Origin: a virus
Virus genome (UHGV): UHGV-0349101
Reading direction: 5' to 3' (one strand)
DNA length: 27,771 nt
Positions 6,215 to 9,756 of the stretch are shown one piece after another. How positions within the stretch are numbered: position 1 is the first letter of the stretch; each line of letters begins with the position of its first letter. The notes below the pieces were generated by a model that was not told where the DNA came from, did no database searches, and saw only the letters and a program-made list of their open reading frames with translations. The position numbers and the translations under genes are program-made.

Positions 6215-6246
6215 AAATAATTTGTTTCTAAACGACTAAAATATGG

Positions 6247-6285
6247 AGGCTCTTATATTTATATGAGCCTCGTTTTATGCTTTTT
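6247..6285 (+). terminator. Rho-independent terminator downstream of emrE
   Basis: 7-bp stem GAGGCTC/GAGCCTC (6247-6253 and 6265-6271) with an 11-nt loop, followed by a T-rich tract. Confidence 0.6.
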
Positions 6286-6470
6286 GTTAATGTCTTTATT
6301 TTTTTATGTATTCTTTTGTGCTTTCAAGATTATGGCGTAAGAAAATTGCAATACGATTATTGTTGTATATTCAAGATAATGTGACCTTAATTGTCTTTTT
6401 AAATAAAAATTAAACAAAAATTATATCTCACCACTAAGGTTTATAAAAGCATACGTTAGCAGGTGTCACC

Positions 6471-7997
6471 ATGAAAAAAGCCATAGCATATATGCGATTT
6501 TCATCACCAGGTCAGATGTCTGGCGACTCATTAAACCGACAGAGAAGACTTATTGCTGAATGGTTAAAGGTAAATAGTGATTATTATCTTGATACCATAA
6601 CATATGAAGATTTAGGATTAAGTGCATTCAAAGGAAAGCATGCACAATCAGGAGCTTTTTCGGAATTTTTAGATGCTATAGAGCATGGTTATATATTGCC
6701 AGGAACTACATTGTTAGTTGAAAGTCTGGACAGACTTTCAAGAGAAAAAGTCGGTGAAGCGATTGAGCGTCTGAAATTGATTTTGAATCACGGTATTGAT
6801 GTTATAACTCTTTGCGATAATACAGTCTATAATATTGACTCTTTGAATGATCCATATTCATTAATAAAAGCCATACTTATAGCACAAAGGGCAAATGAAG
6901 AAAGCGAGATAAAGTCAAGTCGGGTTAAATTATCATGGAAGAAAAAACGGCAGGATGCACTGGAGTCAGGCACGATTATGACGGCGTCTTGTCCGAGATG
7001 GCTCTCCTTAGATGACAAAAGAACGGCTTTTGTTCCAGACCCCGACAGGGTGAAAACTATTGAGCTAATTTTTAAACTCAGGATGGAAAGGCGCTCATTG
7101 AATGCAATAGCCAAGTATTTAAATGATCATGCTGTAAAGAATTTCTCAGGAAAAGAAAGTGCATGGGGACCTTCTGTAATTGAAAAATTATTAGCGAATA
7201 AAGCTCTGATAGGTATATGCGTACCTTCATATCGTGCAAGAGGTAAAGGAATAAGTGAAATCGCTGGCTATTATCCCAGAATCATATCAGATGATTTGTT
7301 TTACGCTGTGCAGGAAATTCGGTTGGCACCTTTTGGTATTAGCAATAGTAGCAAAAATCCTATGTTGATAAATCTACTTCGAACAGTTATGAAGTGCGAG
7401 GCTTGTGGTAATACCATGATTGTTCATGCGGTATCTGGAAGTTTGCATGGCTATTATGTTTGTCCGATGAGAAGACTGCATCGATGTGACAGGCCATCAA
7501 TAAAGAGAGATTTGGTTGATTATAATATCATTAATGAGTTGCTTTTTAATTGTAGTAAAATCCAACCAGTTGAAAACAAGAAAGATGCTAATGAAACTTT
7601 AGAGTTGAAAATTATTGAGCTCCAGATGAAAATTAATAATTTAATTGCTGCATTATCTGTTGCGCCTGAAGTTACCGCTATAGCAGAAAAAATCAGAGTA
7701 TTAGATAAGGAATTACGAAGGGCTTCTGTATCATTAAAAACTTTGAAGAGTAAAGCGGTGAGCTCACTTGGTGATTTTCATGCTATTGACTTAACCAGTA
7801 AAAATGGGCGAGAGCTATGTCGTACACTTGCCTATAAAACATTCGAAAAAATCATAATCAATACAGATAATAAAACCTGTGATATCTATTTTATGAATGG
7901 CATTGTTTTTAAACACTATCCTTTAATGAAAACAATATCCGCCCAGCAGGCGATAAGTACTCTCAAATATATGGTTGATGGTGAGGTTTATTTTTGA
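6471..7997 (+). CDS. ybcK: Large serine recombinase (ybcK-like, 508 aa)
   Basis: N-terminal resolvase-type motif (AYMRFSSPGQ with a candidate catalytic Ser) and a long C-terminal extension with Cys clusters; same length and position as DLP12 ybcK; AT-rich; AGGTG upstream of the ATG. Confidence 0.85.
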   Translation: MKKAIAYMRFSSPGQMSGDSLNRQRRLIAEWLKVNSDYYLDTITYEDLGLSAFKGKHAQSGAFSEFLDAIEHGYILPGTTLLVESLDRLSREKVGEAIERLKLILNHGIDVITLCDNTVYNIDSLNDPYSLIKAILIAQRANEESEIKSSRVKLSWKKKRQDALESGTIMTASCPRWLSLDDKRTAFVPDPDRVKTIELIFKLRMERRSLNAIAKYLNDHAVKNFSGKESAWGPSVIEKLLANKALIGICVPSYRARGKGISEIAGYYPRIISDDLFYAVQEIRLAPFGISNSSKNPMLINLLRTVMKCEACGNTMIVHAVSGSLHGYYVCPMRRLHRCDRPSIKRDLVDYNIINELLFNCSKIQPVENKKDANETLELKIIELQMKINNLIAALSVAPEVTAIAEKIRVLDKELRRASVSLKTLKSKAVSSLGDFHAIDLTSKNGRELCRTLAYKTFEKIIINTDNKTCDIYFMNGIVFKHYPLMKTISAQQAISTLKYMVDGEVYF

Positions 7998-8108
7998 GTA
8001 ATAATCACTTTTTCAACCGTGCTATAGTAAGAAAGTTAGGTAAGTACAATAAAATTATCTATCCTGAACGAAGCGTCCTGAGCTATGGTTTTACTATAGG
8101 GACTGCCA

Positions 8109-8426
8109 ATGGATGCTGGCGTTCTCGTTCTAGCAGTTCAACAATCCCCAATCACAAAACAATTCACTGATAACGAACTTTGCACACTCGCCTGGTTATG
8201 GCGAGCAGGGAATGTGATGTTAATTGCCTACCAGAACGTTACTCATCTTCTTCAGGATGCGGAGCATGGTGAAGCTGGTCACTTCACTTCCATCGAGCAA
8301 GAATATCCCCAGATACTCAACAGAGCGCGAGCAATCCTCGTCCGAGAAACGGCACATGTAAAACTTCAGCCGTGGCAGGATGATAAGTGGAGTCGAGTAT
8401 TGCCGTATTTGCGTCAAATCTGTTAG
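8109..8426 (+). CDS. Hypothetical protein (105 aa)
   Basis: ORF with AGGGA upstream of the ATG; no family recognised; an overlapping reverse ORF also exists, so coding status is uncertain. Confidence 0.35.
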   Translation: MDAGVLVLAVQQSPITKQFTDNELCTLAWLWRAGNVMLIAYQNVTHLLQDAEHGEAGHFTSIEQEYPQILNRARAILVRETAHVKLQPWQDDKWSRVLPYLRQIC

Positions 8427-8630
8427 GAGTATAGCCGCCAGCCATGAGTGTTGTATTAAAACAAGGATGTCTATATATGGGATAGCGAGAGTATGAATAT
8501 CAGTTATTTTGAGAGTTAACTGATTGTGAAATTAGTTTTTTTCACAAACGAGTGGGGTTACTATGATGAGTGTTCTAATGCATAGGGAACACCTAATTTT
8601 TTCAATGAATTCAAATTGATAGGATCAAAA

Positions 8631-9560
8631 ATGGCACAACAGAGAACTACCTCCCTCAGATCCATACCTTTAGACTTAGATGTTAAGCAAGAGGCTGTCA
8701 TTAACGGTATAGAAATGGGGGTACTCGATAACGGAATTCCGTACCTTACTCAGAATGGGTTGGCAAATGTTTGTGGTGTTCAGCGTTTGCGAATCAAGGA
8801 AATTACCGATGAGTGGGCTCAATCTGTTGAGAACGGTATTTTCAAAAAAGGAAGAATGACTTTTATTGGTACATATCTTCTTAATGAAGGTTTTACAGAT
8901 GAAAAACTTTATATACCAATAATTCGAAATGGTGTTGAGTACCATGCTTATCCAGATGTTGTATGCATGGCTATACTTGAATACTATGCCTTTGAAGCAA
9001 AACAAGCAGAAAGTGAGACTGCAATTAGATCTTACAGAGAGCTTGCTAAAAAAGGCCTCAAGACATTTATATACGAGGCGCTAAAATATCAACCGGAGGA
9101 CCCGTGGAGGCATTACCATGACAGAGTATCTTTATTAAAAGATAAGGGAACCATACCTGATGGGTATTTCATTATATTTAATGAAATTGCAGGTATGATG
9201 GTAGATCTCATCAATGCTGGATTAGCGATTAATCAGCATACCGTACCTGATGGCAGTGTTGGTTCTTGCTGGGCGCGTCACTGGAAAGCAAAGGGGTTAG
9301 CAACAGAATTTGGAGAAAGAGTAGACTGTGAGCATTATTACCCTGAAGATTTTCTTCAGGCAAGTTCCAATCCTCAGATCATTAATGCCTATCCTGATTC
9401 TGCATTGTCAGAGTTTCGTAGATGGTTTAAGCATGAATATTTAACCACAAAGTTCCCACCGTATATTCTTAAAAAATCAAACGTGCTTCCTGGTGGTACA
9501 GAAGATGCTAATCGTCTGATAGAAGCTTTCAAAAAATCAGAGCTAGAAAATAAACCATAA
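8631..9560 (+). CDS. Hypothetical protein (about 309 aa), AT-rich nin-region cargo
   Basis: Long AT-rich ORF; ATG at 8631 (MAQQRTT) preferred over the track start at 8616. No family recognised. Confidence 0.6.
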   Translation: MAQQRTTSLRSIPLDLDVKQEAVINGIEMGVLDNGIPYLTQNGLANVCGVQRLRIKEITDEWAQSVENGIFKKGRMTFIGTYLLNEGFTDEKLYIPIIRNGVEYHAYPDVVCMAILEYYAFEAKQAESETAIRSYRELAKKGLKTFIYEALKYQPEDPWRHYHDRVSLLKDKGTIPDGYFIIFNEIAGMMVDLINAGLAINQHTVPDGSVGSCWARHWKAKGLATEFGERVDCEHYYPEDFLQASSNPQIINAYPDSALSEFRRWFKHEYLTTKFPPYILKKSNVLPGGTEDANRLIEAFKKSELENKP

Positions 9561-9756
9561 TTGTTTTTTGGCTTTTGATTTTACATAATCATTTTGCCAT
9601 AATCATGTCATCGGAGCCTGAACAACTCCGGTGACTTCTGCGCTAAACGGGGACGTTTATGCGCACATACAATCCAAACTCTCTTCTCCCTTCACAGATG
9701 CAGAGATGCACCTGCGATTTTTTGCATCCAGCGTTTGACCTCTGCGGAGGTGAAGC

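Follow-up and report, generated by a model that had tools for sequence, protein, structure and literature searches.

The AT-rich island between ren and ylcH of the analysed prophage (UHGV virus genome UHGV-0349101, a stretch of 27,771 nucleotides hereafter called the window) is, with a probability of about 70%, a composite accessory region, the cargo of which turns over by ordinary phage-phage recombination and not by site-specific recombination driven by YbcK, the large serine recombinase encoded in it. The island is carried by an intact-looking DLP12-family lambdoid prophage of E. coli and consists of two layers, namely a conserved emrE-ylcJ-ybcK block at 5815-8036 and a replaceable cargo segment at 8037-9572 (Table 1). 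Turnover of cargo in the ren-ylcH slot was seen among related prophages. As for the mechanism, recombination between phages would take place at conserved anchors, with occasional illegitimate joins and deletions, the proposed anchors being the 3′ end of ren, the sequence that flanks ybcK on its 3′ side, the gene for P22AR_C and, before ylcH, the joint with its promoter and hairpin.

Composition and layout of the island

The interval 6215-9756, which the sequence-only reading had described as markedly AT-rich, does have a GC content of 37.5%, compared to 50.0% in the O-P-ren region (3798-5814) and 48.8% at 9573-11602. It is the seventh lowest in GC among 485 intervals of the same size, with only 11582-13975 being comparably AT-rich elsewhere in the window. 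The start at 6215 did not hold, as the AT-rich block begins at emrE, at about 5815. This block, of which emrE is the first gene, has a GC content of 35.7%, is conserved, and also occurs in K-12 DLP12, in infective lambdoid phages and in about 1400 E. coli genomes. On its left side, similarity to prophages with other cargos fades at about 5771, within the last ~14 codons of ren, according to breakpoints and alignment. A terminator-like hairpin (stem 6246-6252/6265-6271, then a T-rich run) was noticed by eye after emrE. The promoter and terminator scans gave counts no higher than those of shuffled sequences and were used descriptively only, and the Rfam search over 5500-10300 returned chance-level matches only.

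Table 1 Features of the ren-ybcN region of the window
Feature	Position	Strand	Description	Evidence
ren	5512..5814	+	conserved flank on the left	annotation of the identical locus L001
emrE	5882..6214	+	SMR multidrug efflux transporter	Pfam Multi_Drug_Res E=3.4e-35; annotation
ybcK leader	6215..6470	+	26.6% GC	sequence, annotation, GC
ylcJ	6263-6413	+	small ORF, frameshifted here	annotation
ybcK	6471..7997	+	508-aa large serine recombinase; conserved part, outside the variable segment	Pfam
Replaced segment	8037..9572	+	in place of the K-12 ybcL-ybcM region; 1536 bp, 40% GC	breakpoints relative to K-12
Bro-N + P22AR_C gene	8109..8426	+	remnant, 5′-truncated	Pfam P22_AR_C E=7.7e-14; PHROG Ant C-terminus
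bstA homologue	8631..9560	+	309 aa	PADLOC, phrog_6287, BTP1 match
Right joint	9573..9664	+	conserved right joint of the slot	alignments of cargo types; palindromes
ylcH	9659-9760	+	right conserved flank	annotation
ybcN	9757-10212	+	NinB-like; right conserved flank	annotation; weak Pfam NinB match

In K-12 DLP12 the same place is occupied by ybcL and ybcM, as had been proposed: the blocks shared with K-12, at window positions 5601-8036 and 9573-11293, flank the replaced segment, the counterpart of which in K-12 has 1812 bp. Similarity to K-12 declines gradually beyond 8036. The recombinase had also been counted as part of the variable island, but ybcK is K-12's own gene (96.9% DNA identity) and belongs to the conserved part. 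The complete segment 8037-9572 is present in 105 of 5426 E. coli genomes and is always collinear.

Genes of the cargo segment

Both ORFs of the segment, reported earlier as unrecognised, exist and can be assigned. ORF 8109-8426 codes for 105 aa, with the C-terminal P22AR_C domain alone being left, whereas its full-length homologue in ybcK-less prophages has 202 aa and carries both Bro-N and P22_AR_C. Since Bro-N is absent and window positions 8110/8122-8424 align solely to the 3′ half of the full-length Bro-N/P22AR_C genes, the ORF was classed as the truncated remnant of an Ant-type anti-repressor-like gene.

By homology, ORF 8631-9560 is assigned as a full-length BstA abortive-infection gene. 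It matches the PADLOC BstA profile (E=3.6e-121, profile positions 5-291 of 292) and phrog_6287, 'BstA abortive infection system' (E=1.8e-136, positions 2-303 of 304), is 40% identical to the BTP1 protein over residues 3-308, or 99% of the length, in tblastn, and is named 'BstA C-terminal domain-containing protein' by PGAP. An AGGA ribosome-binding site lies 6 nt 5′ of the ATG. The gene sits in a lambdoid prophage between replication and nin genes, flanked by ybcK and ylcH, and the repressor gene (S24 peptidase) is encoded on the other strand, about 5.7 kb upstream; BstA is commonly, not universally, found downstream of the prophage repressor gene (PMC8585504). Judging from its homologues, the protein would defend the lysogen by abortive infection, blocking the DNA replication of superinfecting phages, and a cognate aba element around the start codon would spare the resident prophage at induction. 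The described aba self-immunity DNA elements overlap the bstA start and are variant-specific, with no shared sequence (PMC8585504); the region from -29 to +34 of bstA (8602-8664) has no terminal direct repeat like CCCGCC of BTP1.

Cargo diversity of the ren-ylcH slot

At least 12 slot contents were found between ren and ylcH among related prophages in a sample of E. coli genomes (60 + 40 + 40 rows and 12 loci), in agreement with the idea of a cargo island with differing content. The cargos include ybcL/ybcM, alpha/beta hydrolase, TIR, NACHT, HEPN, DUF4041/SNIPE-associated, BstA and small hypothetical genes, with the domains TIR, NACHT, HEPN, DUF4041+T5orf172 and BstA being recognised from annotation or by Pfam. 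No truly empty ren-ylcH slot was found in this sample, the smallest cargos having about 780-810 bp. What follows ybcK directly is, depending on the prophage, BstA, ybcL/ybcM, a protein of 260 aa, an alpha/beta hydrolase encoded on the other strand, or no cargo, and the junctions after ybcK differ (8036, 8063, 8282 and 8424), forming a nested series through the P22AR_C remnant, which in sequence alignments looks as expected from recombination and deletion. By its gene content, the ren-ylcH/ybcN slot is a hypervariable accessory (moron/defence) hotspot.

The right joint of the slot contains a promoter-like sequence TTGATT-17-CATAAT at 9575-9603, the -35 element of which belongs to a palindrome TTGATT/AATCA, followed by the hairpin GTCATCGGAG/CTCCGGTGAC at 9607-9635 and, at 9640-9664, by a third palindrome that covers the start of ylcH. 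The sequences of eleven cargo types can be aligned from within about 2 nt of 9575 onward, similarity beginning at TTGATTT in the alignment; by locus, the right junctions fall at window positions 9572-9575 in seven loci and at 9556, 9584 and 9639 in three others. Such precision (about 2 nt) is unusual for a junction shared by at least 11 unrelated cargos. General recombination together with selection for keeping the promoter may explain this precision. Capture of cargo at the palindromic joint 9575-9635 by a YbcK-type recombinase, in cis or in trans, or by other site-specific activity is quite improbable; if true, the ren-nin slot would act as an integron-like acquisition site instead of a passive mosaic boundary.

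The large serine recombinase YbcK

The assignment of ORF 6471-7997 as a large serine recombinase was confirmed by Pfam matches to Resolvase (E=5.4e-19), Recombinase (E=3.7e-15) and Zn_ribbon_recom (E=8.2e-08), as well as by a match to the phrog_95 integrase family (3e-121). The catalytic S11 and R9, the D87-R88/S90-R91 block and the four zinc-ribbon cysteines are all intact; R9, S11, Q15, D87, R88, S90, R91, R140, C309, C312, C331 and C339 are invariant across 21 orthologues. The AF2 model (mean pLDDT 80) comprises a catalytic domain, a long helix E, a recombinase domain and a zinc ribbon within which lies a coiled-coil (367-429; helices 367-397 and 401-429). As phmmer found no PDB chain matching YbcK at 1e-3, a structure search was needed, and the top Foldseek matches of the model were full-length att-bound serine integrases (E=2e-17). 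YbcK is thus predicted to be structurally complete and catalytically competent. The dN/dS of 0.07-0.10 (about 0.08) at a dS of about 0.12 indicates purifying selection, which shows that YbcK has some function, and this function could involve the ren-ylcH locus. In K-12, ybcK is silenced in the lysogen by a Rho/NusG-dependent terminator in the equivalent untranslated leader (PMC4150792); upon induction the gene would be transcribed with the antiterminated early-right operon. The literature search found no paper on the substrates of YbcK.

The gene was detected in 1426 of 5426 E. coli genomes, in at most two copies each, with 95-100% identity and always in the ren-ylcH slot together with emrE, and phage Perceval and a second O157:H7 prophage carry it there as well. 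It was found on no true plasmid, the sole full-length matches among plasmid records being chromosome-sized (1.3 Mb and 4.9 Mb). Orthologues with 42-61% identity are located at prophage accessory sites in other Enterobacterales: in the nin region of Pantoea dispersa and of locus L022, in Atlantibacter, Erwinia, Pantoea sp., Ewingella and Yersinia at the distal tail-fibre end, with host DNA or tmRNA adjoining, and in Citrobacter within an element of the conjugative type. The Atlantibacter orthologue is the last gene of the prophage, is transcribed toward the tmRNA gene and is ~540 bp away from the 3′ end of the latter; the orthologues of Erwinia, Pantoea sp. and Ewingella are likewise terminal and adjoin host genes. 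These different sites in other genera suggest that the ybcK gene itself moves. In L022, a 2980-bp block with the recombinase gene lies between ~200-bp direct repeats of the 5′ end of the target gene, which are 86% identical in DNA and 97% in protein and have therefore diverged in separate lineages. No conserved non-coding cassette ends were found around the orthologues in nine contexts. The small genes beside them were considered as directionality factors and turned out to code for UmuD-like and phrog_3893 (accessory) proteins.

Alternative explanations

It had been suggested that the recombinase drives a site-specific exchange of cargo, in which a site just 3′ of ybcK would recombine with the joint upstream of ylcH and thereby swap or flip the segment. 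Such an activity would fit the differing cargo directly after ybcK among ybcK-bearing prophages and the sharply bounded, palindromic right joint, but the same right joint with equally diverse cargo exists in prophages without ybcK (at least seven other cargos: DUF4041/SNIPE-associated, NACHT, HEPN, TIR, two hypotheticals and small cargos), and the ybcK-side junction is not fixed, falling at four positions. No direct or inverted repeat linking 7998-8110 to 9573-9664 was found; the flanking repeats envisaged around the island or the variable segment come down to short imperfect matches off the junctions. Inversion of the BstA cargo was considered and not seen, as the number of genomes with the segment (105) agrees with that of genomes with the whole in collinear order (107). 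Att-like palindromes at the four boundaries did not exceed chance in a shuffle control except nominally for an inverted repeat of 9 bp located before emrE (p about 0.03), a repeat that the ybcK-less S43 island contains as well, although repeat and palindrome scans can miss the sites of large serine recombinases, which share only a 2-bp core. YbcK-driven cargo exchange is not supported by these comparisons, and cassette exchange or inversion by YbcK appears extremely improbable.

The suggestion of a nested mobile element found no support in the junctions, the copy number or the fixed slot; what is left of it, namely an ancient integration of emrE-ylcJ-ybcK (or ylcJ-ybcK) via YbcK, now fixed, with YbcK as a relic or a still-selfish integrase, is rather unlikely. 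It agrees with the block being the most AT-rich part (35.7% GC, leader 26.6%, versus 50% in the flanks), with the intact and selected YbcK, with the differing accessory positions of its orthologues, with the repeat-flanked block of L022 and with S43-type genomes, where the island lies at fliE-yedK and emrE is followed directly by ybcL-ybcM, without ylcJ-ybcK. Against it stand the single slot, low copy number, near-identity and lack of real plasmids for ybcK in E. coli, the left edge of the block (about 5771-5805) being also used by recombinase-less cargos, the unfixed right edge, and palindromes and repeats not above shuffles. Furthermore, the L022 repeats have diverged separately, and E. coli has the same topology (ylcH'...ylcH) around a module that lacks a recombinase. 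The S43-type island was rejected as an empty site, being a decayed remnant with several other internal deletions and only AATAAT microhomology at the junction, and H222, in which the match ends 58 nt before ybcK, was rejected as an excision state, being an IS1-mediated deletion that reaches the host gene envY. These two are the ybcK-less states found by emrE or ylcJ, and no clean excision state was found among them; nor was any presence/absence polymorphism of ybcK with precise junctions, or more than one insertion site, found in E. coli. It is also unlikely that YbcK serves the phage in trans, for instance as a second integrase that provides another attachment site, or through a different part in the life cycle or in competition, with no relation to the cargo. 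The full serine-integrase fold with att-bound integrases as closest structures, the PHROG 'integrase' family, the terminal orthologues by tmRNA in Atlantibacter and by host genes in Erwinia, Pantoea sp. and Ewingella, the retention of ybcK in infective phages and the purifying selection on it speak for such a role, but in E. coli and Pantoea dispersa the prophages encode a tyrosine integrase of their own, and no permuted prophage, integrated via a site near ybcK, was seen among those of E. coli.

Implications

Two 'hypothetical' ORFs present in more than 100 E. coli genomes can be relabelled as a putative BstA-type abortive-infection defence gene and a gene remnant, and the ren-ylcH/ninB boundary of DLP12-type prophages is a rich defence-gene hotspot useful for mining new systems. 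The attractive but unsupported idea of recombinase-driven cargo exchange is removed, and the question is raised why an intact large serine recombinase, including K-12 ybcK, stays under purifying selection in prophages already equipped with a tyrosine integrase. From the sequence comparisons, YbcK-family recombinases appear to serve enterobacterial temperate phages as a conserved accessory function under selection.

Comparison with known systems

Among the closest known systems is the cryptic prophage DLP12 of K-12, the ybcK gene of which (b0544) is the same gene of the same length (508 aa), with the same upstream neighbours (ren, emrE, ylcJ), the same genes after the cargo (ylcH, ybcN, ninE, ybcO, rusA) and 96.9% DNA identity over 5601-8036. 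It differs in having ybcL-ybcM after ybcK, where the window has the P22AR_C remnant and BstA, and in being defective (IS3 in ren, IS5 in nmpC), whereas the prophage of the window looks intact. With the phage large serine integrases PhiC31 and Bxb1 and the att-bound complexes 9dxd/9dxh, YbcK shares the catalytic domain with the nucleophilic Ser, helix E, the recombinase domain and the four-Cys zinc ribbon with its embedded coiled-coil, the Foldseek matches being full-length (E=2e-17 to 2e-12) at an identity of merely 14-19%. Unlike them, YbcK carries an additional, confidently modelled alpha/beta domain at its C-terminus (444-507, phrog_2371), and its gene lies in the early region of a phage with a tyrosine integrase.

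The BstA of the Salmonella prophage BTP1 (Owen et al. 2021, PMC8585504) is also a prophage-encoded, single-gene, full-length homologue, and its 40% identity to the BstA of the window is about equal to that of the experimentally active BstA-Ec (41.7%) (PMC8585504). The BTP1 gene and most described homologues are found downstream of the cI repressor, in contrast to bstA of the window, which is located in the ren/nin slot on the rightward early strand.

The ren-ylcH slot resembles the defence hotspots of temperate phages (P2/P4, PMC9122126; the lambdoid cI-N region with rexAB/BstA, PMC8585504) and the lambdoid 'morons' in its conserved flanks and in its many unrelated, AT-rich, often defence-type cargos in otherwise syntenic prophages. 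No paper describing the ren-ylcH/ninB slot was found in an incomplete literature collection. Its position differs from those of the P2/P4 and cI-N hotspots, and, unlike them, it has internal anchors (ybcK and P22AR_C) that divide it into two or three tandem sub-slots.

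Organization of the prophage

The window represents a DLP12-family lambdoid prophage that looks intact; about 107 complete E. coli genomes carry loci 99.97–100% identical to it. An identical locus with a PGAP annotation supplied the gene order, which was transferred to window coordinates. The region 6215–9756 has a GC content of 37.5% versus 50.0% and 48.8% in the flanks and is the 7th lowest among 485 equal-size windows, which bears out the AT-rich island described in the sequence-only reading, with the true start of the AT-rich block at emrE; the ybcK leader (6215–6470) has a GC content of 26.6%.

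The ylcJ gene, frameshifted according to the annotation of the window-identical genomes, is intact in K-12. A perfect inverted repeat of 9 bp, TTCAAACTG...CAGTTTGAA, lies just 5′ of emrE; it is kept in the island of E. coli S43 and may serve emrE as an operator or regulatory hairpin. A second AT-rich island (34.8% GC), on the minus strand, occupies the interval from Q to the holin gene, which contains nmpC in K-12. It encodes a 404-aa protein (phrog_5023, function not assigned, no Pfam or PADLOC match) and a 391-aa NA37-type nucleoid-associated protein and may be further accessory or defence cargo.

Coordinates of features in the window and in the comparison loci (L numbers)
Feature	Position	Source or remark
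repressor, cro, YdaT-like gene		PGAP; first in listed order, before O
O	3798-4817	PGAP
P	4814-5515	PGAP
ren	5512-5814	PGAP
inverted repeat 5′ of emrE	5833-5865	
emrE	5882-6214	PGAP
ylcJ	6263-6413	PGAP, frameshifted
ybcK	6471-7997	PGAP
P22AR_C-domain ORF	8109-8426	PGAP
309-aa ORF (BstA homologue)	8631-9560	PGAP
right joint of the slot	9573-9664	
ylcH	9659-9760	PGAP
ybcN	9757-10212	PGAP
ninE, ybcO, rusA, ylcG, Q		PGAP; after ybcN, in this order
second AT-rich island	11582-13974	minus strand
partial ylcH-region copies	L005 3774-3877, L006 3501-3638, L011 3172-3302	equivalent to window 9599/9612/9639-9742
S43 remnant	L012 5001-7657	
direct repeats, metagenomic lambdoid contig	L022 9652-9851 and 12633-12831	enclose a 2980-bp block
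Citrobacter koseri locus	L024 8145-11530	
locus at a tail-fibre end	L013 8092-11432	

Comparison with K-12 and identification of the cargo

K-12 DLP12 matches the window at 5601–8036 with 96.9% identity and at 9573–11293 with 96.5% identity, the sole difference in the compared region being 8037–9572 (1536 bp), whose 1812-bp K-12 counterpart carries ybcL and ybcM, as had been supposed. The 508-aa ORF is the K-12 gene ybcK and, since the difference is confined to 8037–9572, belongs to the conserved part. Past ybcK, similarity to K-12 fades gradually with no point stop.

The two ORFs in the replaced segment had been considered unrecognised; both exist, but both can be identified. The 309-aa ORF codes for a full-length BstA homologue (PADLOC BstA, E = 3.6e-121, profile positions 5–291 of 292; phrog_6287 "BstA abortive infection system, replication inhibitor", E = 1.8e-136) with 40% identity to BstA of Salmonella phage BTP1 over residues 3–308. 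BstA acts by abortive infection, blocking DNA replication of the superinfecting phage, while its own prophage escapes because a cognate DNA element, the 63-bp "aba" across the gene start, neutralises BstA (PMC8585504). The shorter ORF contains P22AR_C as its only Pfam domain. The homologous gene in related ybcK-less prophages codes for a 202-aa protein with Bro-N and P22AR_C, and the window is alignable just to the 3′ half of this full-length gene (8110/8122–8424), so the ORF is its 5′-truncated remnant.

Contents and junctions of the slot

The interval between ren and ylcH was surveyed in E. coli genomes sampled at even spacing and in twelve fetched loci, and many different contents were found. 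Together with emrE-ybcK, the slot carries the P22AR_C remnant and BstA (the window), the P22AR_C remnant and a 260-aa protein (L010), an alpha/beta hydrolase gene on the opposite strand (L004, phage Perceval), ybcL-ybcM (K-12) or almost nothing (O157:H7, L003/L020). Without emrE-ybcK, it carries a DUF4041/T5orf172 "SNIPE-associated" protein (L008), the same protein with a full-length Bro-N/P22AR_C protein and a 169-aa protein (L005), NACHT with P22AR_C and an 83-aa protein (L011), P22AR_C with HEPN and one hypothetical protein (L006), a TIR protein (L009), two hypothetical proteins (L007) or small cargos of about 0.8 kb. No empty ren-ylcH slot was found among the E. coli slots surveyed. Prophages lacking ybcK have, on the 5′ side of the full-length Bro-N/P22AR_C gene, a further, incomplete copy of the ylcH region with about 91% identity, and the slot thus consists of tandem sub-slots parted by ylcH-type linkers.

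The right joint of the slot is unusually sharp and palindromic and is one of two residual points of interest, the other being the substrate of YbcK. The right junction hardly varies: seven loci have it at window position 9572–9575, and three more at 9556, 9584 and 9639. When 11 cargo types are aligned, the left-hand sequences are unrelated, and alignable sequence starts no more than about 2 nt from TTGATTT at 9575. The joint is promoter-like (TTGATT-17-CATAAT, 9575–9603) and contains three conserved palindromes or hairpins just 5′ of and over the ylcH start, one of them being GTCATCGGAG/CTCCGGTGAC (9607–9635), with a few compensatory changes in the hairpins and no match of the joint in Rfam. 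The joint might regulate the nin operon or be a favoured place for recombination. On the left, similarity of the ybcK-less cargos fades near position 5771, within the final ~14 codons of ren, and the junctions just 3′ of ybcK fall at four positions (8036, 8063, 8282 and 8424), forming a nested series through the P22AR_C remnant.

YbcK as an enzyme

Judging by its sequence and predicted structure, YbcK appears to be NEVERTHELESS a real, maintained enzyme. Its three Pfam domains are those of a large serine recombinase, in line with the initial assignment. Five alleles are all 508 aa long, with dN/dS of 0.07–0.10 and dS of about 0.12, and R9, S11, Q15, D87, R88, S90, R91 and R140, as well as four zinc-ribbon cysteines, are invariant in 21 orthologues (28–61% identity). 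The AlphaFold2 model (mean pLDDT 80) contains a catalytic domain, the long helix E, a recombinase domain, a zinc ribbon, a coiled-coil (367–429) and an extra C-terminal domain, and its top structural matches are full-length att-bound serine integrases, PhiC31 and Bxb1 (E-values from 2e-17 to 2e-12). The extra domain (residues 444–507) has an alpha/beta fold with pLDDT of 84–94; residues 348–508, coiled-coil included, constitute a separate PHROG, phrog_2371, without assigned function.

In K-12, a Rho/NusG-dependent terminator in the ybcK leader silences the gene (PMC4150792), and after induction ybcK would be expressed as part of the antiterminated early-right transcript. In the literature searched, a single phenotype is described: overexpression improves tolerance to sabinene, with no mechanism given (PMC7181518).

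Cargo exchange and the role of YbcK

The sequence-only reading had suggested a nested mobile element or a recombinase-driven exchange of cargo. The variable cargo island stands, as slot content is not identical everywhere and differs between prophages, but the recombinase mechanism is not supported. No direct or inverted repeats marking the island or the variable segment were found, and there were no att-like palindromes at the boundaries above shuffled controls. There are 105 genomes with a complete cargo segment and 107 with the entire collinear arrangement, so inversion polymorphism is not seen. The ybcK gene occurs in 1426 of 5426 E. coli genomes in no more than two copies each (95–100% identity) and effectively never on plasmids, and the second copy in O157:H7 occupies the same slot of another lambdoid prophage. 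Differing content is equally frequent where the recombinase is absent.

Two candidates for an excised state were rejected, as they turned out to be ordinary deletions. The emrE-ybcL-ybcM island of S43, between fliE and yedK, is a decayed remnant of DLP12 type that has lost several internal stretches and shows nothing beyond an AATAAT microhomology at its junction. In strain c1-17, IS1 mediated a deletion that runs from ylcJ to envY, a host gene. The S43 remnant (emrE-ybcL-ybcM-ylcH′-quuD′, without ybcK) is located outside any recognisable prophage, and such remnants are common in E. coli, given that about 1/6 of the sampled rows show the same emrE-only match type. Due to the repeat, palindrome, inversion, copy-number and deletion results, cargo exchange driven by YbcK is not supported.

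YbcK orthologues sit in accessory positions of other prophages: in the nin region in Pantoea dispersa, whose prophage has its own tyrosine integrase, and in the metagenomic contig L022; and beyond the tail-fibre assembly gene, at the distal prophage end, in Atlantibacter, Yersinia, Erwinia, Pantoea sp. and Ewingella. The Atlantibacter recombinase gene stops about 540 bp away from the tmRNA gene, at the latter's 3′ side. At the tail-fibre ends (L013, L017, L023, L025) a conserved pair of small genes, phrog_3893 (function not assigned) and a UmuD-like gene, lies 5′ of the recombinase in three genera and 3′ in Erwinia. The Citrobacter orthologue (50% identical) is divergent from a Shufflon_N-like pilV gene with TraD and MobA/MobL genes nearby, a conjugative or mobilisable element and not a phage.

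In L022, direct repeats of ~200 bp enclose the recombinase block. They correspond to codons 1–60 of the downstream DUF1367 gene, are 86% identical at the DNA level versus 97% at the protein level (58/60 aa) and thus come from different lineages; the same topology (ylcH′...ylcH) surrounds a recombinase-free module in E. coli. The L022 block encodes the YbcK orthologue, a KGG protein and DinI, and a SIR2-domain gene is present a few kb upstream. In view of these contexts, the gene itself could be mobile or act as a second integrase; they establish no link between YbcK and the neighbouring cargo.

The best explanation, with a probability of roughly 0.7, is that the slot is a lambdoid accessory/defence hotspot, and that ordinary recombination between phages, acting at conserved anchors, swaps its cargo. 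In the window the hotspot carries a BstA gene adjoining the conserved emrE-ylcJ-ybcK block, an unusual position for a BstA variant. In terms of sequence, this BstA is about as divergent from BTP1 BstA (40%) as BstA-Ec, which is 41.7% identical and experimentally active (PMC8585504), and the slot is one more phage defence hotspot, a known kind.
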